Shown one piece after another: positions 7,885 to 62,160 of a DNA stretch of 64,000 bases. The notes under the pieces are model-generated. The model did not search any database and had not been told where the DNA came from. It worked only from the letters and a program-made list of their open reading frames with translations. The position numbers and the translations under genes are program-made. Each line of letters opens with the position of its first letter. Within the stretch, counting starts at the first letter, position 1. Where the stretch lies: positions 193,998,001-194,062,000 of the forward strand of contig OZ024743.1 of NCBI GenBank assembly GCA_964016885.1. The letters run 5' to 3'. The stretch is from Eledone cirrhosa. Taxonomy: Eukaryota.

Positions 7885-7915
<31 letters not shown>

Positions 7916-8029
7916 TAAGAGGAATTCCAACTTTGTCTGATTTACTCGTTTTATTTACAATCCTTTAATATATAAATAATGGTATTATAATGAAATAGTA
8001 AGATAGAATATTAAATTCTAAGTGTTAAT

Positions 8030-8068
8030 TGAACAAGTACTTTCATGCTTTCGCAATCTTCAGGTTCA
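8030..8068 (-). ncRNA. Minimal type I hammerhead in the PLE pLTR
   Basis: tgaac CTGAAGA ttgc gaaa gcat GAAA g ta CTT gttca. Confidence 0.8.
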
Positions 8069-8417
8069 TGATATGTGGTGACAGACGAGTTTGCAATTTT
8101 CAACTGTAATGAGATGGGTATACAGAGAAAAGTGGCTCCAGAATGCAAAGCTCTGTAAACTGTATTTCGACCAATCAGTGTGTAGTTTCACTGAATTACT
8201 ACAGCTGATTGGTTTAAGCGTCACGGCTGGTTGAGCATGCTAACGACCAATAGTCATACCCAACGTATCAATTGTTTTGCTTTTTGAAATGATGAAAATA
8301 GCATTTTCTATTAATCATCACCATCAACATCACTTTTATTATTATTATTATTGTTTTTGTTGTTGTTGTTAGTGGTCGTGGTCATAGTGGTAGTAGAAGT
8401 AATACCCCTAGGCGTTA

Positions 8418-9452
8418 TTATTGTTCATTTAGCTTGGGTTTGAACTTATCAATAAAATTCTTTTCTTTGATTTTTCTCTTGATTTCACTTGGGCTGTGTA
8501 ATTTGTAGAATGGGAATATTATAAATATTCCCTGACCACATGTTGCCAGGTGGCCGCTTAGGGGTATCTGACGGACATTTGGGTCTCTGATTTGTTGACG
8601 GTGTACCCGTGCACATTCCGATAGTGCATTTCCAGTTTGGCCGACATATAGTTCTTCACAATTCGGGCATTTAATGCAGTAAATTAGATTTCTGCTTTTG
8701 CAGTTCATATTTGCATTTGGGAATATTTTTCCAGTTTTTGTTTTCATATATTGACCGGCGTGTATGGATTGACATGTGCCGCATCGATTATCATTGCATT
8801 TAGATACAGTGAATGATTGGTCCTTGTTGTTAAGGTCAAACTTTGCTTTTGTTAGCAATTGCTTCAAATTTTTTGGCTGTCTTTTACTAAGAGTCAAAGA
8901 TCGATCTGTGATTAAGCCTTTTAATTCATTACTTTGAGCAATGATCGGTAGGTTTGCTTTGGCAGTGTTGAATATATTCTGGTGACATGGTTTGTGTGTC
9001 ATTATAAATGGTATGACCAGTTCTTGGTTTCTTCTTCCTTGGGTTGTTCTAAGTTGTTGTATAGGTATTTTTATAGCCCGCTGTATGCCATTTTCTATAA
9101 GTAGAGATGGGTATTTTTGTTTGAGCAAAAATTCTCTTAGTTCTGTTAGGCGTTTGTACCTGGTATTCGTATCTTCTACAATGGTACAAATTCTTCTGGC
9201 TAGGCAGTATGGGATGTTGCGTTTTGTATGAGGTGGATGGCACGACTTAAAATTCAGATATTGATGGGTGTCTGTGTGTTTATAATATATATCCGTGGTA
9301 ATGGTGGTGTCGTTTTTGATTATCATTATATCTAGGAATGGTAATTTGGTCCTACTCATCTCTTTTGTGAATTGGAGAGATGGGTGTAGGTTATTCAGGA
9401 GGATATTGAACTCATCCAGAGTATCTAGAGATTCTGTCCAGATGATGAAACA
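8418..9452 (-). pseudogene. PLE polyprotein, C-terminal part: RT motif 5-7 remnant, thumb, Cys linker, GIY-YIG endonuclease
   Basis: CFIIW (just after the missing YxDD), LPFLDIMI, TDIYYKHTDTHQYL, KCNDNRCGTC, NLIYCIKC..LYVGQTG..R..H, final PKLN. Confidence 0.9.
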
Positions 9453-9666
9453 GAAGATGAAGATTGCGAAAGCATGAAAGTACTTGTTCAATTAACACTT
9501 AGAATTTAATATTCTATCATACTATTTCATTATAATACCATTATATATATTTTAAAGGATTGTAAATAAAACGAGTAAATCAGACAAAGTTGGAATTCCT
9601 CTTATTAATATAATCTTCTATACACAATCATACACACCCGTGTATATTTACCTATCTATATCTATA

Positions 9667-9727
<61 letters not shown>

Positions 9728-11985: not shown

Positions 11986-12035
<50 letters not shown>

Positions 12036-12040
<5 letters not shown>

Positions 12041-12510
12041 GAATTGGTGCTCTGAAATAGCGATATATACATGAATATATATATAGTATATTTGGCAATA
12101 TACTGTATGCTTAATTAAAAACATTTTGAAGACCTTGCGCTATTATTTTAAAGTAGTGACTATGTCACTTACTTCTTTTTTCAACAAACAAATGGAGATA
12201 AGCTGACAGATCAGTTTCACACTGTTGGTGATCATCAGAGCTTAGCACTCGCCGATGCCTGTTGAAAATTATAGATGCTGGATTCTTATAGAATTCCAGT
12301 AATAATCAGGAACTGATTATACAGAGCGATTGCCGGTCCCCCAAAAAATAAAATTAGAATTGGTGCTCTGAAATAGCGATGTATACATGAATATATATAT
12401 AGTATATTTGGCAATATACTGTATGCTTAATTAAAAACATTTTGAACACCTTGCACTATTATTTTAAAGTAGTGACTATGTCACTTACTTCTGTTTTCAA
12501 CAAAAGAAGT
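12036..12510 (-). mobile_element. Retrozyme-like element, 316-bp unit, about 1.5 copies; relative of the 310-bp family
   Basis: Direct repeat with period 316; shares gctctgaaatagcgatatata, aacattttgaagacct and gagcg.ttgccggtcc with the 310-bp unit. Confidence 0.8.
12198..12244 (-). ncRNA. Type I hammerhead ribozyme
   Basis: taagct CTGATGA tcac caaca gtgt GAAA c tgatct GTC agctta. Confidence 0.8.
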
Positions 12511-19833: not shown

Positions 19834-19881
<48 letters not shown>

Positions 19882-19995
19882 GGAGGTGAGTTTTATTGTA
19901 GTACAATAAAGCAATGCAGATATCGGATAAGAAGCACTCTACAGTATGTAGGACTGGAGTATACATGATATATAAGAACAAAAGATGGTTAAAAG

Positions 19996-20371
19996 AGTTC
20001 AAAATAAAGATACCAGTTAAATTAGTCAATTGGGATGAATCGGATGCTCCCATTGTGATGTCGAAGTTGTTAGAGGTATCGGCTCTGGTCCAATATTCGT
20101 TGTTGAACTCTAGGATGGTTTTACGTGCGGTGAGAATGATGTGAAGTTCATCTGTGGTGATGTCAGAATATTTAAGTGAGAAAGATAGAGCATTATTGAG
20201 AAGTGAAGGCGAAATGGAGGAATAGTAGTTGGCAATATCAAATTGAACAAATTTTAGTTTGTTTTTATTATTCAATTTGTTGAACCAGCTAATCACTTCA
20301 GAAGTACCAAACCATAAATTGAGGTTCAAAGAAGAGCAATTAGAACGAACCTGTGGGATAATTCTATCCAA
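19996..20371 (-). pseudogene. Inverted upstream part of the PLE reverse transcriptase (motifs 3-4)
   Basis: FVQFDIANYYSSIS...NFDITMGASDSSQLT; overlaps in sequence with the start of the plus-strand ORF. Confidence 0.85.
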
Positions 20372-20391
20372 GATGCAACTTCGACATCACA

Positions 20392-21807
20392 ATGGGAGCA
20401 TCCGATTCATCCCAATTGACTGATTTAATTGGTATCTTTATTTTGAACTCTTTGAGTCGGAAAATTCCTCAACTTCGCGGTGGAATTTATCGTGACGATG
20501 GACTCTTTACTATCTTAAATTGCAATATAGTTAACCTTAATATTATTAAGAACAATATACGTAATCTCTTTAACCAACATAACCTAAAAATTGAATTTGA
20601 TAACAGTATCAAACTAGCTAATTTCTTGGATGTATCTCTTAATCTTGACACTGGCCTATATTACCCTTACCATAAAAACAATGAGAACCTAAATTATGTT
20701 AACTTTAAATCTAACCATCCTACTAATATCAAGAATGCTATAGTTAGTAATATTGGAAACAGAATATCTAACATATCTTCTAATAAAAACATCTTTGATG
20801 CTAACGCCAATTACTATAATAACGCGCTTTCTAAAGCCGGCTATCCTGATAAAATCAAATATAGTAAAGAAACAAATTCTAGAAGAAATTACAGTAGAAT
20901 AATTAATCATGATCATTCCAATAACTTTCATAAAAGACCTAGATACAAAAACATAATCTGGTATAATGCTCCTTTCTCCATCTCTATTAATAACAATATT
21001 CCTAAATTATTCTTTAGTGCCTTAAATAAATGCTTCCCTCCCTCACATATCTATAGTAAAATATTTAACAAACATACCATAAAATTTTCTTATTCTACAT
21101 CATCCAACATTTCCAACATTATCTCTAAACACAACAATAAAATACTAAATACTAAATCTCTTCCTTCCAACACTGAATTTCATAATAATAGTACTCCCGA
21201 CGTCATTGTAAACCCTAGGCTAATTTCTGCAAACCCAAATACAACGTCAAACACAACTTCGCTAAATGTTCATAATCCCATTCTAAATCAAGAAACTATT
21301 ATTCCTATCGCAAACAACTTCTCCAATCCAATTCCTTCTATAGATAACACTAGGTCACTCATTAATAATCTCTCTAATTGCAATTGCCCTATTAAAAATA
21401 AATGTCCTCTCAACAACCATTGTCTTGATAAAAACTTAATTTACGAATGTAAAGTTATAACTGACACCAATTCCTTCACCTATTTTGGCTCCACTTCCAC
21501 CTCTTTTAAAGCTCGTCTTTATAACCATCATTCGTCTTTTAAATACAAACTTAAAAGAACCAACACGGCTCTCTCAGAACTCATATGGTCCTTGAAATAC
21601 AAAAACATTAAATATAGCATCTTTTGGAAGAAGGTTTCTTCGGCGTCTCCATACTTGAACAGTTCTCTATCTAAAATCTGCAATCTCTGTCTAAATGAAA
21701 AATTTACCATTATCTCTAATCGAGATTCTATAATAAATAGACGCACTGACTTGTTTTCTATCTGCTTACATAAATTCCATAAAACATTTCACAAAGTATA
21801 CAGCTAA
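20392..21807 (+). pseudogene. PLE RT (C-terminal half) + GIY-YIG endonuclease; 5'-truncated but stop-free
   Basis: MGASDS, IYRDDGL, NFLDVSLNL, SNHP, CNCPIKNKCPL, LIYECKV..YFGST..FKARLYNH, CNLCLNEK. Confidence 0.9.
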
Positions 21808-22772
21808 TATTCAATTCTTTATCAATTTAGAATCTTTTTCTCAAAGGCACATATATATACACTTCTTTTAAAAATATACCCATCTTTCTACCTTATATCA
21901 AAGGTTATTATACATTCTATAATACTTGTTTACTCATTACTCTTACTCTATATCACCTTGTAAAAATCCTCCGTAAACATATACATTTTTTTGACGCTAG
22001 ATTATTCATCCTCAATTCATTATTCTTTTCTCCCTATCATCTAACTCATTATTCTCAATACATATTAACATTTTCTTTTTTCTTCGCACATATTATCAAA
22101 TCCTTCAATATACAAACCTTAACTTTACATTATTTTTCTCTTCGTTAATTTTCAAATTCTATAATACTTGTTTACTCTTTCTACATCACCCATATTTATC
22201 ACTTCCTTTTCTTCTCTTCTAATATCTAACCCCTAATCTGTACCTTTTCTCACTCTTGCCTAACATAGAATCAATTATTACATAATACAACACATTCTTA
22301 CTCTATATCACCTTGTAAAAATCCTTCGTAAACATATACATTTTTTTGACGTTAAATTATTCATCCTCAATTCATTATTCTTTCCTCCCTATCATCTAAC
22401 TCATTATTCTCAATACATATTAACTCCTTCTTTTTCTTCGCACATATTTTTCTCTTCGTTAATTTTCAAATTCTTTTAATTTATACATTATCTTCCAACG
22501 GTTTTCAACCTCTCTATGTAAAACAATATATCTTTCTCAGTTATAAAAACTATCTCTCTCTCTATCACCCATCTCTCCTCCTATCTCATCCTTCCTCATT
22601 ATACTCCTCCCTCTCCACCTACACTCTCATCTCCTTCTTTTTTTTCACCCCCCCCCCCTCTAAATAAAATATTTTTTCCAATATCACACATCAATCTAAA
22701 ACTACTTCTCATATGTTGATTTAAAACTGAACTATCCACAAGTGTTTTTTAACCTTCATATCATGTCCTCCT

Positions 22773-22841
22773 GTTTTATCTGATGAAAACACAAATATTA
22801 TTGCATGATGATATTTGTTTTTGAAATGCGCATAATAAAAT
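22773..22841 (+). ncRNA. Type I hammerhead in the Naiad-like pLTR
   Basis: gttttat CTGATGA aaacacaaatattatt..gatgatatttgtttt GAAA tgcgc ATA ataaaat. Confidence 0.8.
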
Positions 22842-22870
22842 ACATGGAACTCTTTTAACCATCTTTTGTT

Positions 22871-22922
<52 letters not shown>

Positions 22923-25746: not shown

Positions 25747-25942
25747 ACAAACAAATTGTGGTAAGGAACCAGATGGACCATAACGCACCAGAGTACTCAA
25801 TATTTAGAGTAGTAGAGTGGGAAATAGGAAAAAGTATGACCCCGACGTCAGAGCTCAAGCCGTTTCGACGGCTATTTCTGGAGTCCAGAAATAGCCGTCG
25901 AAACGGCTTGAGCTCTGCCGTCGGGGTCATACTTTTTCCTAT
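25745..25942. mobile_element. Fold-back fragment of HHR family C (3' half of the ribozyme duplicated)
   Basis: Palindrome centred at 25883; the arms carry gccgtc GAAA cggcttgagctc..GTC ggggtc. Confidence 0.75.
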
Positions 25943-26034: not shown

Positions 26035-26040
<6 letters not shown>

Positions 26041-26600
26041 AATTAGTATATCTACCAACATATATATATACAGATGCATACCTATGCTAGCAAATATATA
26101 GGTTTTGTCTTAGTAACTTTGTGGTTTAATGCAAGGGGATGCAGAACAATTATATGAAAGACGTAAAATAAGAAAATTATAAAAATTAACTTACTTACTA
26201 AAATTTTACTCCAACTAATTACTTTCTGAAAGAGAATAAACATGGTTTCCGAATGGAACAACGTGGAGAATACCTTTCGTCATCTGGAAGTCAATTCTCA
26301 GCTAAGTTCCCAGGCAATGCGTGGCCACAGGGAACTTATACAAAAATAATTCAGTGGATGGAAAAAAGCAAGCGAGGACTAAATTCCAAGACATTGAAAA
26401 GATCCCTGCCTACATGGTCGGTGGCAAATTCAAAAGAATCAATCACGTGACATCGAGGTTAATCAGTGAGGAGTGGGGTGTTAAGAAGACAGTAGCCGAA
26501 CTATTACTATGAACTATAGTAGTAGTTTTGGCAAATTTTTGCTCAACAAAATAATTTGGAGATAATTATAAAGAATTAGTATATCTACCAACATATATAT
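26035..26600 (-). mobile_element. Old terminally redundant element (533-bp unit) with degenerate HHR at 26238-26290
   Basis: taaagaattagtatatctaccaaca repeated at period 533; CAGATGA cgaa..ttcg GAAA ccatg on the minus strand. Confidence 0.5.
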
Positions 26601-26727
26601 ATATGAATATAGACATAGAATATTCGAAAATATTCTGTATGTTTATAATAAACATTTTGAAGACCTAATCGCTATAGAATAGAATACGTCACGTATTACA
26701 ATTAGATTCTCGGTAAAAGCAAGGGAA

Positions 26728-26770
26728 GTAATCTACGCGTTTCATTCTTATTAGAAATCTTCAGGACTAC
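26728..26770 (-). ncRNA. Type I hammerhead (first of 8 minus-strand copies, spaced 310 bp)
   Basis: gtagtc CTGAAGA tttct aata agaat GAAA c gc GTA gattac. Confidence 0.88.
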
Positions 26771-29389
26771 ATATCCAGTGCTTTTATCGAGAATGACACA
26801 GCTAGAGACTTATAGAATACTTAGCTGTGTACAGAAACTGGTTTGAAAGAGCGGTTGCCGGTCCGGCAGAAATTAGAAATTGGAATAAATGCTCTGAAAT
26901 AGCGATATATATGTGAATATAGACATAGAATATTCGAAAATATTCTGTATGTTTATAATAAACATTTTGAAGACCTAATCGCTATAGAATAGAATACGTC
27001 ACGTATTACAATTAGATTCTCGATAAAAGCAAGGGAAGTAATCTACGCGTTTCATTCTTATTAGAAATCTTCAGGACTACATATCCAGTGCTTTTATCGA
27101 GAATGACACAGCTAGAGACTTATAGAATACTTAGCTGTGTACAGAAACTGGTTTGAAAGAGCGGTTGCCGGTCCGGCAGAAATTAGAAATAGGAATAAAT
27201 GCTCTGAAATAGCGATATATATGTGAATATAGACATAGAATATTCGAAAATATTCTGTATGTTTATAATAAACATTTTGAAGACCTAATCGCTATAGAAT
27301 AGAATACGTCACGTATTACAATTAGATTCTCGATAAAAGCAAGGGAAGTAATCTACGCGTTTCATTCTTATTAGAAATCTTCAGGACTACATATCCAGTG
27401 CTTTTATCGAGAATGACACAGCTAGAGACTTATAGAATACTTAGCTGTGTACAGAAACTGGTTTGAAAGAGCGGTTGCCGGTCCGGCAGAAATTAGAAAT
27501 TGGAATAAATGCTCTGAAATAGCGATATATATGTGAATATAGACATAGAATATTCGAAAATATTCTGTATGTTTATAATAAACATTTTGAAGACCTAATC
27601 GCTATAGAATAGAATACGTCACGTATTACAATTAGATTCTCGATAAAAGCAGGGGAAGTAATCTACGCGTTTCATTCTTATTAGAAATCTTCAGGACTAC
27701 ATATCCAGTGCTTTTATCGAGAATGACACAGCTAGAGACTTATAGAATACTTAGCTGTGTACAGAAACTGGTTTGAAAGAGCGGTTGCCGGTCCGGCAGA
27801 AATTAGAAATTGGAATAAATGCTCTGAAATAGCGATATATATGTGAATATAGACATAGAATATTCGAAAATATTCTGTATGTTTATAATAAACATTTTGA
27901 AGACCTAATCGCTATAGAATAGAATACGTCACGTATTACAATTAGATTCTCGATAAAAGCAAGGGAAGTAATCTACGCGTTTCATTCTTATTAGAAATCT
28001 TCAGGACTACATATCCAGTGCTTTTATCGAGAATGACACAGCTAGAGACTTATAGAATACTTAGCTGTGTACAGAAACTGGTTTGAAAGAGCGGTTGCCG
28101 GTCCGGCAGAAATTAGAAATTGGAATAAATGCTCTGAAATAGCGATATATATGTGAATATAGACATAGAATATTCGAAAATATTCTGTATGTTTATAATA
28201 AACATTTTGAAGACCTAATCGCTATAGAATAGAATACGTCACGTATTACAATTAGATTCTCGATAAAAGCAAGGGAAGTAATCTACGCGTTTCATTCTTA
28301 TTAGAAATCTTCAGGACTACATATCCAGTGCTTTTATCGAGAATGACACAGCTAGAGACTTATAGAATACTTAGCTGTGTACAGAAACTGGTTTGAAAGA
28401 GCGGTTGCCGGTCCGGCAGAAATTAGAAATTGGAATAAATGCTCTGAAATAGCGATATATATGTGAATATAGACATAGAATATTCGAAAATATTCTGTAT
28501 GTTTATAATAAACATTTTGAAGACCTAATCGCTATAGAATAGAATACGTCACGTATTACAATTAGATTCTCGATAAAAGCAAGGGAAGTAATCTACGCGT
28601 TTCATTCTTATTAGAAATCTTCAGGACTACATATCCAGTGCTTTTATCGAGAATGACACAGCTAGAGACTTATAGAATACTTAGCTGTGTACAGAAACTG
28701 GTTTGAAAGAGCGGTTGCCGGTCCGGCAGAAATTAGAAATTGGAATAAATGCTCTGAAATAGCGATATATATGTGAATATAGACATAGAATATTCGAAAA
28801 TATTCTGTATGTTTATAATAAACATTTTGAAGACCTAATCGCTATAGAATAGAATACGTCACGTATTACAATTAGATTCTCGATAAAAGCAAGGGAAGTA
28901 ATCTACGCGTTTCATTCTTATTAGAAATCTTCAGGACTACATATCCAGTGCTTTTATCGAGAATGACACAGCTAGAGACTTATAGAATACTTAGCTGTGT
29001 ACAGAAACTGGTTTGAAAGAGCGGTTGCCGGTCCGGCAGAAATTAGAAATTGGAATAAATGCTCTGAAATAGCGATATATATGTGAATATAGACATAGAA
29101 TATTCGAAAATATTCTGTATGTTTATAATAAACATTTTGAAGACCTAATCGCTATAGAATAGAATCGCTATTCTATAGCGATTAGGTCTTCAAAATGTTT
29201 ATTATAAACATACAGAATATTTTCGAATATTCTATGTCTATATTCACATATATATCGCTATTTCAGAGCATTTATTCCAATTTCTAATTTCTGCCGGACC
29301 GGCAACCGCTCTTTCAAACCAGTTTCTGTACACAGCTAAGTATTCTATAAGTCTCTAGCTGTGTCATTCTCGATAAAAGCACTGGATAT

Positions 29390-29432
29390 GTAGTCCTGAA
29401 GATTTCTAATAAGAATGAAACGCGTAGATTAC
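29390..29432 (+). ncRNA. Type I hammerhead (first of 5 plus-strand copies, spaced 310 bp)
   Basis: gtagtc CTGAAGA tttctaataagaat GAAA cgc GTA gattac. Confidence 0.88.
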
Positions 29433-30829
29433 TTCCCTTGCTTTTATCGAGAATCTAATTGTAATACGTGACGTATTCTATTCTATAGCGATTAGGTCTT
29501 CAAAATGTTTATTATAAACATACAGAATATTTTCGAATATTCTATGTCTATATTCACATATATATCGCTATTTCAGAGCATTTATTCCAATTTCTAATTT
29601 CTGCCGGACCGGCAACCGCTCTTTCAAACCAGTTTCTGTACACAGCTAAGTATTCTATAAGTCTCTAGCTGTGTCATTCTCGATAAAAGCACTGGATATG
29701 TAGTCCTGAAGATTTCTAATAAGAATGAAACGCGTAGATTACTTCCCTTGCTTTTATCGAGAATCTAATTGTAATACGTGACGTATTCTATTCTATAGCG
29801 ATTAGGTCTTCAAAATGTTTATTATAAACATACAGAATATTTTCGAATATTCTATGTCTATATTCACATATATATCGCTATTTCAGAGCATTTATTCCAA
29901 TTTCTAATTTCTGCCGGACCGGCAACCGCTCTTTCAAACCAGTTTCTGTACACAGCTAAGTATTCTATAAGTCTCTAGCTGTGTCATTCTCGATAAAAGC
30001 ACTGGATATGTAGTCCTGAAGATTTCTAATAAGAATGAAACGCGTAGATTACTTCCCTTGCTTTTATCGAGAATCTAATTGTAATACGTGACGTATTCTA
30101 TTCTATAGCGATTAGGTCTTCAAAATGTTTATTATAAACATACAGAATATTTTCGAATATTCTATGTCTATATTCACATATATATCGCTATTTCAGAGCA
30201 TTTATTCCAATTTCTAATTTCTGCCGGACCGGCAACCGCTCTTTCAAACCAGTTTCTGTACACAGCTAAGTATTCTATAAGTCTCTAGCTGTGTCATTCT
30301 CGATAAAAGCACTGGATATGTAGTCCTGAAGATTTCTAATAAGAATGAAACGCGTAGATTACTTCCCTTGCTTTTATCGAGAATCTAATTGTAATACGTG
30401 ACGTATTCTATTCTATAGCGATTAGGTCTTCAAAATGTTTATTATAAACATACAGAATATTTTCGAATATTCTATGTCTATATTCACATATATATCGCTA
30501 TTTCAGAGCATTTATTCCAATTTCTAATTTCTGCCGGACCGGCAACCGCTCTTTCAAACCAGTTTCTGTACACAGCTAAGTATTCTATAAGTCTCTAGCT
30601 GTGTCATTCTCGATAAAAGCACTGGATATGTAGTCCTGAAGATTTCTAATAAGAATGAAACGCGTAGATTACTTCCCTTGCTTTTATCGAGAATCTAATT
30701 GTAATACGTGACGTATTCTATTCTATAGCGATTAGGTCTTCAAAATGTTTATTATAAACATACAGAATATTTTCGAATATTCTATGTCTATATTCACATA
30801 TATATCGCTATTTCAGAGCATTTATTCCA

Positions 30830-30861
<32 letters not shown>

Positions 30862-30864
<3 letters not shown>

Positions 30865-31423
30865 AACAAGTAAGACCCCGACCGCTGAGCTCAAGCCGTT
30901 TCGACGGCTAATTCTGGACTGAATGAAAATTTATTCTGGTATTTAAATAGCCGAGCTCATCAAGGGGTAATTCCATATATGGTCAAAGAGATAATCACCA
31001 GGATTGGTCACATCACAAGTTAGTAGTAAATCTGTGATGGCAAAATGGTGGGGGAAGGGGTAGCTGAACCTGCCGGTAGGAGTAAAAGGGAGAGGGGGTG
31101 GAGTAGACCCATTCATGCGTTGGTATTGCCGGCTACAGCTGGGTGTGAGGTCAAAGAAGATTCTGGGGAGGGGGAGGGGGAGGAAGTCGAAACGGTAAGT
31201 AGAACAATGAGGGTAAAACTATAAAAGTACTGAGAGAGAAAAAAAAAATAAGCAAAGTGATCGCGCCAAGAATACATAAAAAATGGGTAAGAATCGTGAC
31301 GTAGCAGCGGTCAGGTTACAAAGAATATGATTAGTTGCTTACGGCTGATGGCCTTTTGCTAGAAAGCGCAGCACAATACAGCCAAAATTGTATCTCAACC
31401 TAAGGGAGATATTATATATAAAG

Positions 31424-31675: not shown

Positions 31676-31859
31676 CGAAGGAAATGTGGTAAGGAACCAG
31701 GTGGACCATAACGCACCAAACTACTCAATACTTGAGGTAGTAGAGTGGGTAATAGGAACCAGTAAGACCCCGACAGCTGAGCTCAAGCCGTTTCGACGGC
31801 TAATTCTGAGAATTAGCCGTCGAAACGGCTTGAGCTCAGCTGTCGGGGTCTTACTGGTT

Positions 31860-31862
<3 letters not shown>
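31676..31862. mobile_element. Second fold-back fragment of HHR family C
   Basis: Palindrome centred at 31808; homologous to 25745-25942. Confidence 0.75.
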
Positions 31863-56063: not shown

Positions 56064-56257
56064 TATGTATACGTACATACATATATCTATACAGACGTAC
56101 AGTAGTATGTATATATATATACATACATGCACATATATATATACATGTACGTATGGATTCACCGAACATTTATTATAATGCTCGGTGTGTTTGTAAACAA
56201 ACATCCCGAGAAATGAAATTTCGTTTCATTTTTTCCGTTTATATATATATATATATA

Positions 56258-58996
56258 TTGGAATAAATGCTCTGAAATAGCGATATATATGTGAATATAG
56301 ACATAGAATATTCGAAAATATTCTGTATGTTTATAATAAACATTTTGAAGACCTAATCGCTATAGAATAGAATACGTCACGTATTACAATTAGATTCTCG
56401 ATAAAAGCAAGGGAAGTAATCTACGCGTTTCATTCTTTTTAGAAATCATCAGGACTACATATCCAGTGCTTTTATCGAGAATGACACAGCTAGAGACTTA
56501 TAGAATACTTAGCTGTGTACAGGAACTGGTTTGAAAGAGCGGTTGCCGGTCCGGCAGAAATTAGAAATTGGAATAAATGCTCTGAAATAGCGATATATAT
56601 GTGAATATAGACATAGAATATTCGAAAATATTCTGTATGTTTATAATAAACATTTTGAAGACCTAATCGCTATAGAATAGAATACGTCACGTATTACAAT
56701 TAGATTCTCGATAAAAGCAAGGGAAGTAATCTACGCGTTTCATTCTTTTTAGAAATCATCAGGACTACATATCCAGTGCTTTTATCGAGAATGACACAGC
56801 TAGAGACTTATAGAATACTTAGCTGTGTACAGGAACTGGTTTGAAAGAGCGGTTGCCGGTCCGGCAGAAATTAGAAATTGGAATAAATGCTCTGAAATAG
56901 CGATATATATGTGAATATAGACATAGAATATTCGAAAATATTCTGTATGTTTATAATAAACATTTTGAAGACCTAATCGCTATAGAATAGAATACGTCAC
57001 GTATTACAATTAGATTCTCGATAAAAGCAAGGGAAGTAATCTACGCGTTTCATTCTTTTTAGAAATCATCAGGACTACATATCCAGTGCTTTTATCGAGA
57101 ATGACACAGCTAGAGACTTATAGAATACTTAGCTGTGTACAGGAACTGGTTTGAAAGAGCGGTTGCCGGTCCGGCAGAAATTAGAAATTGGAATAAATGC
57201 TCTGAAATAGCGATATATATGTGAATATAGACATAGAATATTCGAAAATATTCTGTATGTTTATAATAAACATTTTGAAGACCTAATCGCTATAGAATAG
57301 AATACGTCACGTATTACAATTAGATTCTCGATAAAAGCAAGGGAATCTAATTGTAATACGTGACGTATTCTATTCTATAGCGATTAGGTCTTCAAAATGT
57401 TTATTATAAACATACAGAATATTTTCGAATATTCTATGTCTATATTCACATATATATCGCTATTTCAGAGCATTTATTCCAATTTCTAATTTCTGCCGGA
57501 CCGGCAACCGCTCTTTCAAACCAGTTCCTGTACACAGCTAAGTATTCTATAAGTCTCTAGCTGTGTCATTCTCGATAAAAGCACTGGATATGTAGTCCTG
57601 ATGATTTCTAAAAAGAATGAAACGCGTAGATTACTTCCCTTGCTTTTATCGAGAATCTAATTGTAATACGTGACGTATTCTATTCTATAGCGATTAGGTC
57701 TTCAAAATGTTTATTATAAACATACAGAATATTTTCGAATATTCTATGTCTATATTCACATATATATCGCTATTTCAGAGCATTTATTCCAATTTCTAAT
57801 TTCTGCCGGACCGGCAACCGCTCTTTCAAACCAGTTCCTGTACACAGCTAAGTATTCTATAAGTCTCTAGCTGTGTCATTCTCGATAAAAGCACTGGATA
57901 TGTAGTCCTGATGATTTCTAAAAAGAATGAAACGCGTAGATTACTTCCCTTGCTTTTATCGAGAATCTAATTGTAATACGTGACGTATTCTATTCTATAG
58001 CGATTAGGTCTTCAAAATGTTTATTATAAACATACAGAATATTTTCGAATATTCTATGTCTATATTCACATATATATCGCTATTTCAGAGCATTTATTCC
58101 AATTTCTAATTTCTGCCGGACCGGCAACCGCTCTTTCAAACCAGTTCCTGTACACAGCTAAGTATTCTATAAGTCTCTAGCTGTGTCATTCTCGATAAAA
58201 GCACTGGATATGTAGTCCTGATGATTTCTAAAAAGAATGAAACGCGTAGATTACTTCCCTTGCTTTTATCGAGAATCTAATTGTAATACGTGACGTATTC
58301 TATTCTATAGCGATTAGGTCTTCAAAATGTTTATTATAAACATACAGAATATTTTCGAATATTCTATGTCTATATTCACATATATATCGCTATTTCAGAG
58401 CATTTATTCCAATTTCTAATTTCTGCCGGACCGGCAACCGCTCTTTCAAACCAGTTCCTGTACACAGCTAAGTATTCTATAAGTCTCTAGCTGTGTCATT
58501 CTCGATAAAAGCACTGGATATGTAGTCCTGATGATTTCTAAAAAGAATGAAACGCGTAGATTACTTCCCTTGCTTTTATCGAGAATCTAATTGTAATACG
58601 TGACGTATTCTATTCTATAGCGATTAGGTCTTCAAAATGTTTATTATAAACATACAGAATATTTTCGAATATTCTATGTCTATATTCACATATATATCGC
58701 TATTTCAGAGCATTTATTCCAATTTCTAATTTCTGCCGGACCGGCAACCGCTCTTTCAAACCAGTTCCTGTACACAGCTAAGTATTCTATAAGTCTCTAG
58801 CTGTGTCATTCTCGATAAAAGCACTGGATATGTAGTCCTGATGATTTCTAAAAAGAATGAAACGCGTAGATTACTTCCCTTGCTTTTATCGAGAATCTAA
58901 TTGTAATACGTGACGTATTCTATTCTATAGCGATTAGGTCTTCAAAATGTTTATTATAAACATACAGAATATTTTCGAATATTCTATGTCTATATT

Positions 58997-59001
<5 letters not shown>
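56258..59001. mobile_element. 310-bp retrozyme-like array 2: about 3.5 copies (HHR on -), inversion at about 57335, about 5.3 copies (HHR on +)
   Basis: Period 310; 8 hammerheads (56416, 56726, 57036 on -; 57592, 57902, 58212, 58522, 58832 on +); (TA)n flanks. Confidence 0.92.
57592..57634 (+). ncRNA. Type I hammerhead (representative of array 2)
   Basis: gtagtc CTGATGA tttct aaaa agaat GAAA c gc GTA gattac. Confidence 0.88.
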
Positions 59002-59051
<50 letters not shown>

Positions 59052-59259
59052 CGTTTCTGAATTTGTTTAGCAAGATTCTTTATCTGAAAACGTGTGTTGA
59101 AATCGATATTGTTATACTTTGGGAGGGTGATGTTGCCAATAAGATACACACGCACCATTTACTTTCACTTCAATTTATTATAATAAATTTATAAGTTTAG
59201 GAATTTATAAATTTCCGGTTGGTTGGTTGGTTCCACAACCAGATGGTTGTTTATATATT

Positions 59260-59302
59260 GTCAAAGTTCTTTCGTCACACATTTTGTGACCTCTTCAGTG
59301 AC
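59260..59302 (-). ncRNA. Type I hammerhead in pLTR
   Basis: gtca CTGAAGA ggtcaca aaatg tgtgac GAAA g aa CTT tgac. Confidence 0.8.
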
Positions 59303-59506
59303 TGGGGATTCTTTTCTTTGTTTTTTGTGCCTCTCCTTTGTTCTGTCCTACGCCATCTTGTTTGTGTGTGTGTGTTGTGTGCTTAGTTTGCGCATGTGTT
59401 ACATCCGGGTGTCTGTGTGTGTTTATATTCGTTTATTTATTTGTTTATTTACATGTTACTGGTTGGTTGTTTGTTCTAAGTGCGTGCGTGTTTTTTCATT
59501 TTGTCC

Positions 59507-61522
59507 TTAATTGTAAGTTGTGATGTAACTGTTCCACTCATGTTTTCTATTTAATTTTGGTTGTAATTCATTTATGATTATTGCCTCTGTGATTTGTCTA
59601 AACATTGCGTCTTTTCTGTTTGTAGATTCTATTTTTATTTCTATGTTCTCTAATTTACCCTTATGTTCTATTTTAGCATGTTGGTAGAGTACAGGTGATT
59701 CTTTACTATCTTGAAGGTCTCGCCAGTGTTCATTTATCCGTTCCCCTATACTACGAGCTGTCTCACCTATGTACACTATATTTTTATCTCTACATTGTCC
59801 TTCAGTACATCTTATGCTATATACTACATTTCTAGTTTTACAGTTAATATGGGGGCTTAATTTACAGATTATACATTTCTTATCTATACAGGGAGGTTTT
59901 TGAAAAGGGTATGTCTTGCTAATAAGTGTTTTTATGGAGGTACCTGGTCTTTCTACTATCTTAATATTGAGTTTATGTTTATCTAGGGCCCTTCTAAATT
60001 TGTAAGCTAATTCACCTCTAGGGGTTGTCTCGATGAACATTACACTCTGGTATTTATTGCTATCATACCATGAGTTTATTCTATTAGCCTTATTCCTAGT
60101 TCTTTCTATTCTATTCCAAAATTTGCTCCTATACAAGGGGCAGGTCCCATTTGTGTCATTATTTACCATTTTTTCCCATTTGGTTCTGGCTCCTCTATAC
60201 ACTCTGATTTTATCTCTTTGATTGTAACCAGAGAACTGCATACGGTGGGTGAAGTGTTGTATGTGTCTCTCTAGTTCTTCGGGGTTGCACATGCGGGACA
60301 CGTTTCTCATCACCCGTACCAAATCCGCAATCAGTATGTTGATTTTGGTATGGTCCGAAAAAGTTGAGTTTCGGTGGATCAGATATTTGGAAGATATGGG
60401 TTTGGCCTAATGGGAATGGAGGATTTGTTTTTTGTTATTAATGGTATCTAACCAGAGCTCTGTGTCTAGTACAGGTAATCGATGGTTGGGGTGTTTGCTT
60501 GGGTAGTCTATAGTAACTCTAATACTCTGGTGGATGGAGTTAGCTATTTGCTGGATGCTTTTCATTGTGTTTTTCTCTAATTCCTGACTGTTCTCTAGTG
60601 GGGCTGTTTTAACTACGATGTTTATATCATCAACGTAGCGGGAGTACATTATCAGGGTTAAGGGGTCTTCTAATTGTTCTTTAAGTTTAAGTTTAAGTTT
60701 ACTGTCCCACCATACCATGAATAGGTTAGCTATGTCGCCTGCAATGCTAACACCAATGGCTGCTCCCTCCTCTTGGGCATATGTTTTTCCATTAAATTTG
60801 AACATATGTTCCTTAAGGGTTAATTTTATGCTGGCCCCCACCGCATGTGCAATCATCTTCTTTAGTTCATCGTGGTTTTCGGGGGTCCGTATGGCTCTGG
60901 TCCACCCGTTCCATCTATCTGTGTGGATTTTCTTGGCCATTGAGGTAATGGTAGGTGGTCTGCCTCTTGCTGGTCTTGTAGGGCACAGGTTGCTAAGGTC
61001 ATATGTGTCTAGATAATTATTACTATAGGTAAGTTTAAGTAGGAGTCCCAGCTCACTGGTATCAATCCCAAGGAATTCAACATTGCTCTCACTGATCATT
61101 TATTTGCATTTCTCCACAGCAAAATCCACGTCAATAGATGGATACAGGGACACAACAGCCATACTACCTATTATGCAGTTTGTTAGATCCCTAGATCGGT
61201 TACTCTCGCCGATTCTGCTGAGGAGGTCCTCCGTGCTGTCACATACATCTGGGGACATTTCAATGATGGGGCGTATGATCAGGGAGAGGAAGTAGGACAG
61301 TCTGTAGTTACTAGCAATATTAGCTCCACAGACTGGCCGTGTTGGTGATCCTGTGACAGGGTCACTGCTCGTTTTATGGTCTTTTCGAAGCCCATATAAC
61401 GCTGGCACGTCATTGTTCCAGGCCTGGAAGTTGTTGGCAGTCCTTTTGTTGGGCTGCATTATATTTGTCCACATCATCATATGGGCATTGAGGGCTTTTT
61501 CTCTATCCTCATGCTCTTGTGG
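59507..61522 (-). pseudogene. PLE RT + GIY-YIG endonuclease with two in-frame premature stops (61100-61102 and 60407-60409)
   Basis: LYGLRKDHK..RPVCG, SLYPSID, GAAIG, YSRYVDDI, LPVLD, VVYSIRC..VYIGETARSIGERINEH, PKLN; the three listed ORFs are in the same frame. Confidence 0.9.
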
Positions 61523-61895
61523 GGAAAAGAATCATAAGGGTAAATTAGAAAACATAGAAATAAAAATAGAATCTACACACAGAAAAGACGCAATGTTTAG
61601 ACAAATCACAGAGGCAATAAACATAAATGAATTACAACCAAAATTAAATAGAAAACATGAGTGGAACAGCAACATCACAACTTACAATTAAGGACAAAAT
61701 GAAAAAACACGCACGCACATAGAACAATCAACCAACCAGTAACATGTAAATAAACAAATAAATAAACGAATATAAACACACACAGACACTCGGATGTAAC
61801 ACATGCGCAAACTAAGCACACAACACACACACAAAAACAAGATGGCGTAGGACAGAACAAAGGAGAGGCACAAAAAACAAAGAAAAGAATCCCCA

Positions 61896-61938
61896 GTCAC
61901 TGAAGAGGTCACAGAATGTGTGACGAAAGAACTTTGAC
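61896..61938 (+). ncRNA. Type I hammerhead in the inverted pLTR
   Basis: gtca CTGAAGA ggtcaca gaatg tgtgac GAAA g aa CTT tgac. Confidence 0.8.
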
Positions 61939-62085
61939 AATATATAAACAACCACCTGGTTGTGCGAACCAACCAACCAACCGGAAATTTATAAATTCCT
62001 AAATTTATAAATTTATTATAATAAATTGAAGTGAAAGTAAATGGTGCCTGTGTATCTTATTGGCAACATGACCCTCCCAAAGTAT

Positions 62086-62160
<75 letters not shown>

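Follow-up and report, generated by a model that had tools for sequence, protein, structure and literature searches.

Head-to-head arrays of a 310-nt hammerhead repeat in Eledone cirrhosa and their probable origin by twin target priming on a circular RNA

How can a tandem array of hammerhead ribozyme units come to reverse its orientation once, so that the ribozyme sense reads outward on both sides? The question is raised by positions 26604-30833 of a 64,000-nucleotide (nt) stretch of Eledone cirrhosa DNA (contig OZ024743.1, positions 193,998,001 to 194,062,000; hereafter the window), where near-identical 310-nt units lie head to head. The layout is the known pattern of Penelope-like element (PLE) insertions carried by a repeat, and is not a new kind of element. 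Such arrays arose, with high probability, by twin priming, in which both target strands prime cDNA synthesis. The fuller reading, that the unit is a non-long-terminal-repeat (non-LTR) retrozyme and that a PLE-type reverse transcriptase (RT)/endonuclease inserted it by priming from both target strands on a circular RNA monomer, is considered probable.

Tandem Repeats Finder reported a period of 310 at 26595-29165 (8.3 copies, 99%) and at 29168-30833 (5.4 copies, 100%), in agreement with the 'about 8 and 5' turns round a circle that a sequence-only reading of this DNA had proposed. The two arms are 100% complementary across 1669 nt, with a gap of 5 nt between them. Of 13 hammerhead cores, the 8 in the left arm lie on the minus strand and the 5 in the right arm on the plus strand, so the ribozyme sense reads outward. 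The near-identical units, the hammerhead in each, the single reversal and this outward sense had all been claimed from the sequence and held. Two details had to be amended. The 5-nt spacer does separate the complementary arms, but 3 of its nt are templated, as the left arm extends to 29165, and 2 are extra. A TA tract was claimed on both sides; the right one is present, while the left one is merely (AT)6 (26593-26604). Taking the first nt 3' of the GUA cleavage site as unit position 1, the features of the locus are:

26593..26603: left target remnant, a short AT tract
26604..29165, minus strand: left arm, 8.3 units; outer end of the short (A) type, templated to position 130; inner end at position 49
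28893..28946, minus strand: innermost type I hammerhead motif of the left arm, predicted cleavage 28904/28903; 8 copies
29166..29167: joint, 2 extra nt separating the inner ends; found once in the assembly
29168..30833, plus strand: right arm, 5.4 units; inner end at position 52; outer end of the long (B) type, position 167
29384..29437, plus strand: first type I hammerhead motif of the right arm, predicted cleavage 29426/29427; every 310 nt, 5 copies
29427..29736, plus strand: monomer from cleavage to cleavage, the predicted circle
30797..30833, plus strand: tail, unit positions 131-167, on the right end and not on the left; of the size of the 30-40 nt PLE tail
30834..30862: right target TA tract

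The 3-Gb assembly contains 16,997 exact hammerhead cores. Exact end patterns were found 1,100 times for the long end and 1,165 times for the short end, and reversed-pattern controls gave 0. Two-armed insertions of the unit number more than a thousand, with roughly 1,900 loci in the genome. A sample of 137 loci, each up to 10 kb, was drawn: 36 from unanchored DNA searches, 60 consecutive long-end matches on one contig (C1, one duplicate match skipped), 34 short-end matches picked for having no exact long end listed close by, six mosaic picks and one junction match. Two-arm pairs numbered 124, including the two insertions of the window. Removal of five duplicate or complex loci, four at an edge or gap and four with an end left unclassed by the script (three of which read short/long in another parse) left 111 insertions.

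Adjacent segments were ordered minus-then-plus 126 times and plus-then-minus once, within a complex locus, which is the inverted second copy of PLE insertions. The sequence-only reading had named random polarity as an outcome that would count against it, and polarity is not random. Every cluster with both strands in the unanchored listing of cores was also ordered minus-then-plus. The outer ends are paired as well: all 111 insertions have one short end (positions ~130-139) and one long end (164-173), with 0 short/short and 0 long/long. This pairing held in 29/29 unanchored, 52/52 long-end-anchored and 24/24 short-end-anchored insertions and in 6 others. As anchoring excludes one homo-class from each anchored set, the real tests are 52/52 against long/long, 24/24 against short/short, and the 29/29 unanchored. 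The gap between short and long ends has the size of the PLE tail, and all 111 insertions carry such a tail at one end only, measuring 35-42 nt from position 130 or 26-33 nt from position 139. TA-like sequence was present on both sides in 96/111. Among the 87 short ends listed, 57 have target TA in place of C131, which is what annealing of a TA primer over the AU tract at 132-139 would leave. The long end has only 1-2 nt in common with the TA target. Single-arm insertions occur for both end types.

The longer arm bears the short end in 54 insertions and the long end in 57. Arm lengths follow a nearly exponential distribution (mean 1.4 kb); in 85/111 insertions each arm is longer than one unit, and the lengths of the two arms are weakly correlated (rho 0.29, p 0.002). 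Inner ends are spread uniformly round the unit, offsets between inner ends are uniform too (Kolmogorov-Smirnov p 0.41), and most joints consist of 0-5 nt overlaps or short inserts. Such independent arms argue against a self-priming origin of head-to-head PLE copies and for two target-primed cDNAs. The uniform ends and offsets also mean that the 5-nt spacer at 26604-30833 is chance; inner ends lie within 20 nt of each other in 14/111 insertions, against 14.7 expected. The near-perfect palindrome of this locus is therefore chance, and its short hairpin-like joint has no mechanistic weight. Two other candidates were rejected. A joint near the cleaved 5' end of the RNA was hinted at by the two window loci, but inner ends are uniform in the 111 insertions: 5/222 lie within 5 nt of the cleavage site, against 7.2 expected, over 988 passes across it. 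Template jumping at the cut site was rejected as no such end enrichment was seen and the position-2 insertions are subfamily-wide, not per unit. Inner ends fall at the other start site in 5 and 5 cases, against 6.1 expected, showing neither enrichment nor blocking of the L1 type.

The unit itself has the features of a retrozyme. Units of a size within 150-450 nt stand in tandem, each with a type I hammerhead recognized by motif and helix pairing, and the element is non-coding, lacks LTR structure and is dispersed in many copies over many contigs. The arrays contain no open reading frame of at least 120 amino acids, and no frame encoding an RT plus GIY-YIG, as an autonomous PLE would have, lies within the element. 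Helix I of the hammerhead pairs GUAGUC with GAUUAC, a U.U stands at the base of helix II, and a minimal helix III is built around the palindromic ACGCGT; an Rfam scan of the unit gave no match at the gathering score. Two copies are predicted to fold as a double hammerhead (-22.3 kcal/mol against 2 x -8.1). The predicted monomer is strongly self-paired (-72.5 kcal/mol, z -4.5, 0/100 shuffles equally stable) and is closed by helix I.

What the template was can be asked from the variants. A cleaved linear monomer permits at most about 0.4-0.55 unit per arm, a length exceeded by 106 and 105 of 111 arms. Haplotypes were compared at 81 loci with both arms of at least 1.2 units, a private variant being one present in a single sampled locus. 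There were 35 haplotypes, 26 of them seen once, and 24 private variants were fixed in every unit of both arms, in 21/81 loci and in up to 24/24 units, which implies a monomer bottleneck. Four targeted pattern searches of the genome found 10 neighbouring units of unlike haplotype, against 16,997 cores. Minor variants were present in both arms in 15/202 cases, and repeated within-arm variants occurred at 9 sites only. Eleven loci of 8-24 units had no minor substitution, and length did not rise with divergence (rho -0.19, p 0.057). The arrays are thus taken to be born long. Long, uniform, locus-specific arrays would need a monomer bottleneck followed by repeated copying, and a closed circle could supply both.

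The proposed sequence of events is as follows. Tandem transcripts would self-cleave as double hammerheads, and the monomers would then be ligated into 310-nt circles. A PLE protein, probably a dimer, would bind unit positions about 60-200 and nick both strands of a TA tract. One target 3' end would anneal to the AU tract at 132-139 and prime there, and the other would prime at 165-172 through 1-2 nt of homology. Both cDNAs would roll round the circle for 1.4 kb on average, with 8.3 and 5.4 turns at the 26604-30833 locus, and their free ends would join through 0-5 nt of microhomology or a short insert before fill-in. The twin-primed rolling-circle origin put forward from the sequence fits the fixed outer ends, one of each type, the lack of an arm-length hierarchy, the uniform joints and the monomer-bottleneck variants; the circle, the cleavage and the PLE enzyme are themselves inferred. 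More broadly, it seems on balance plausible that PLE integration is obligatory twin priming: an RT dimer would hold one RNA and offer one start site per cut strand, and on a ribozyme-made circle this would become bidirectional rolling-circle reverse transcription, as in the roughly 1,900 palindromes. One mechanism would then account for the PLE tail, the inverted pseudo-LTR (pLTR) and the retrozyme arrays, and rarely both growing ends would switch circle together.

Several observations weigh against this account. About nine mosaic loci misfit one pure monomer. The haplotype of three of them (L113, L096, L151) changes in register from the outer ends, a pattern that an ordered multimer would produce, and so would a joint template swap; L127, L128, L147 and L149 change haplotype near the centre, and L087 and L123 carry different haplotypes in the two arms. 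The joint of L128 is also found in L167, a pure locus of the inner (donor-type) haplotype bar one mismatch, which favours later ectopic conversion at L128, while the joint of L147 is unique. Palindrome centres may thus be repaired from ectopic copies. Block-periodic variants in four long-arm loci (L058, L059, L079, L145) indicate that DNA-level duplication or multimer circles occur, and the rare mosaics speak for multimeric templates or for conversion after insertion. In vitro, hammerhead cleavage was dispensable for the PAc Poseidon protein (Frangieh 2024, PMC11167929). In an older 317-nt subfamily, which retains positions about 57-200 of the 310-nt unit with a diverged hammerhead, end pairing is kept in 13/15 classifiable loci, the exceptions being one short/short and one long/long. 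A test for selection on RNA structure was borderline (disruptive 5/43 against 33/125, p 0.057), and no claim of selection on the ribozyme is made. Lastly, conserved-core BLAST, a relaxed hammerhead scan and tblastn found no autonomous partner PLE with the tail of the 310-nt unit (pLTR homology) in about 1.4 Mb of the 3-Gb genome.

Among the rivals, the one that survives best keeps twin priming and has it act on a linear multimer, transcribed from an array already in the genome and left uncleaved, with circles as a by-product. The in vitro study just cited had unprocessed RNA as main substrate and no requirement for cleavage, and an ordered multimer fits the in-register mosaics as well as a variant of L079 common to both arms. 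However, this scheme has no monomer step that would fix a private variant over 10-24 units of both arms, and it accords poorly with the few minor variants found in both arms and with the absence of L1-type blocking at the other start site; no source array with the switch of L113 is present in the assembly. A linear multimer is therefore thought unlikely.

Lower in probability stands the expansion of short insertions by later unequal crossover or slippage, a satellite model of the kind considered by Li et al. 2026 (10.64898/2026.07.22.740005). The block-periodic variants would follow from it, and arms of 24-27+ units were seen at L078, L100 and L145, the block-repeated variants of L145 suggesting secondary expansion there. 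As a general origin it is improbable, as it conflicts with the long arrays free of internal variation, the lack of growth with divergence, the 9 sites of repeated within-arm variants, the 85/111 insertions with both arms above one unit and the near-exponential lengths.

In the self-priming model (PMC3846280, compared in part), one cDNA folds back and the second arm is copied from the first. The near-perfect palindrome at 26604-30833, the centre-symmetric mosaics (L127, L128, L147, L149) and the weak correlation of arm lengths would all be in its favour. A fold-back palindrome should have a short loop and a copy no longer than its template, yet each end type is the longer about half the time and joint offsets are uniform, so the model is largely refuted as a rule. 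The outer ends are fixed on both sides, insertions with an A end alone or a B end alone occur, and neither arm of L087 is contained in the other. Self-priming is accordingly rated very improbable.

An excised DNA circle copied by a DNA polymerase or RT would leave the same genomic footprint as an RNA circle, but the hammerhead in every unit, the common helix I variants, which preserve pairing, the strong self-pairing of the monomer and the RNA circles documented for retrozymes in other animals make it extremely unlikely. An assembly or fold-back read artefact is scarcely credible: although independent contigs did not show the 26604-30833 joint, 11 other minus-to-plus joints of the unit occur in an independent short-read assembly (run X1), the flanks are not mirror images (1/113 inverted matches, a 91% repeat), the two ends differ by rule, and older and unrelated families have the same layout.

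Twin priming on a circular monomer can be set beside published systems, each source cited being compared in part. Retrozymes, the proposal of tandem cDNA made from a circle, the inverted copy with its tail on one side, and the pair of start sites have all been published. Cervera and de la Pena 2020 (PMC7229834) proposed for non-LTR retrozymes that a primed circle is copied into tandem cDNA by a PLE enzyme. The 310-nt family resembles their retrozymes in its tandem repeats (170-400 nt there), the type I hammerhead per unit, the low GC content and the self-paired monomer. In the sections compared, that paper has tandem copies only, without head-to-head arms, paired ends or a bottleneck test, and its invertebrate motifs have a stable helix III, whereas the motif of the 310-nt unit resembles the amphibian dimer type. 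Li et al. 2026 likewise regard retrozymes as non-autonomous PLE derivatives; the portion compared makes no mention of head-to-head, palindrome or orientation, and discusses local amplification by unequal crossover.

PLE insertions consist of an inverted 5'-truncated copy with a 30-40 nt tail at one end (Craig 2021, PMC8557442; Arkhipova 2013, PMC3846280), and share with the 310-nt insertions the head-to-head layout, the tail on one arm and TA-microsatellite targets. In the passages compared, the layout is explained by self-priming on an antisense template, and resolution by the endonuclease is given as the source of the tail. The 310-nt insertions, in contrast, have several units in each arm, and their statistics are more in favour of two cDNAs primed by the target. 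The origin of the inverted copies and the one-sided tail is called open in PMC8557442. In vitro, PAc cut both strands and extended them from two sites separated by the length of a tail (PMC11167929). Common to both systems are a tail bounded by two internal start sites, a predicted dimer and AT-rich targets. In the part of that study compared, start sites are reported not to differ between strands, primer and template to share no homology, and sites are not paired per event. Each 310-nt insertion uses one of each start site, and its short end has the pattern expected of AU-tract annealing.

In L1 twin priming both target strands also prime, giving minus-then-plus polarity and microhomology joints; such events are a minority in L1 and take place on a linear RNA, with a second site that varies. 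In the 310-nt family, by contrast, two-armed insertions are the norm, both sites are fixed and blocking was not seen. The sequence-only reading was aware of no earlier description of the architecture. No description of head-to-head retrozyme concatemers, end-pairing counts or a bottleneck test was found in the open-licence PMC/bioRxiv literature, subscription PLE papers and supplements being sources that may bear on novelty; the layout itself is the known PLE 'inverted copy plus tail' on a repeat. In the portions of the literature compared, copying of retrozyme circles by rolling-circle reverse transcription has been proposed but not put to a direct genomic test. A very young family of about 17,000 units turns the questions of PLE layout and rolling circle into counts. 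On these counts twin target priming is preferred to self-priming, and an array length set at birth to one gained by unequal crossover. Palindromic DNA of this family makes up roughly 5 Mb of the genome (16,997 x 310).

The sequence-only reading overlooked the two fixed, unequal outer ends and a second two-armed insertion of the unit in the window, at 56257-59007, whose own variants are fixed across all units of both arms. Its arms, and the relative of the unit in the window, are:

56257..57345, minus strand: left arm, 3.5 units; long (B) end, position 165
57343..59007, plus strand: right arm, 5.4 units; short (A) end; joint a 3-nt microhomology
12035..12510: older 317-nt relative with a different hammerhead; 2,585 candidates genome-wide at a first look

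Two unrelated hammerhead repeat families, sampled at few loci, also show minus-then-plus order and unequal ends. They are represented by L034, L040, L071 and L132 (about 470-490 nt) and by L039, L051 and L110 (466 nt); the two share a tail-like motif, and one has internal TA tracts hosting insertions of other elements. Three coding PLE-type families, from the window and the sampled loci, have the same polarity and short/long ends, one of them ending at positions 395 and 451 of its 3' segment. Their Pfam matches are weak: GIY-YIG in one, RVT_1 in another and none in the third. A PLE-type element at 59050-62093 of the window has broken RT and GIY-YIG-like frames, with a long minus and a short plus arm whose ends are 56 nt apart; a hammerhead-like motif was read by eye near 61897-61940. 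PLE-type remnants at 7901-9680 and 19878-22875 are also minus-then-plus, with unequal ends in TA tracts, and the latter shows an extra template switch within its short arm.

In sequencing runs X1-X20, the 310-nt unit was found at 0.54-0.86 of its words under 18 organism labels from 17 studies, which could reflect close relatives, mixed samples or horizontal spread; none of the runs listed is on record as RNA, which does not bear on expression. Around the 26604-30833 locus, a 30-nt direct repeat (26037-26070, 26570-26600) bounds the segment to the left of the insertion, and another TA-flanked repeat family, with a long internal inverted repeat, is present at 25753-25940, 30863-30915 and 31676-31862.

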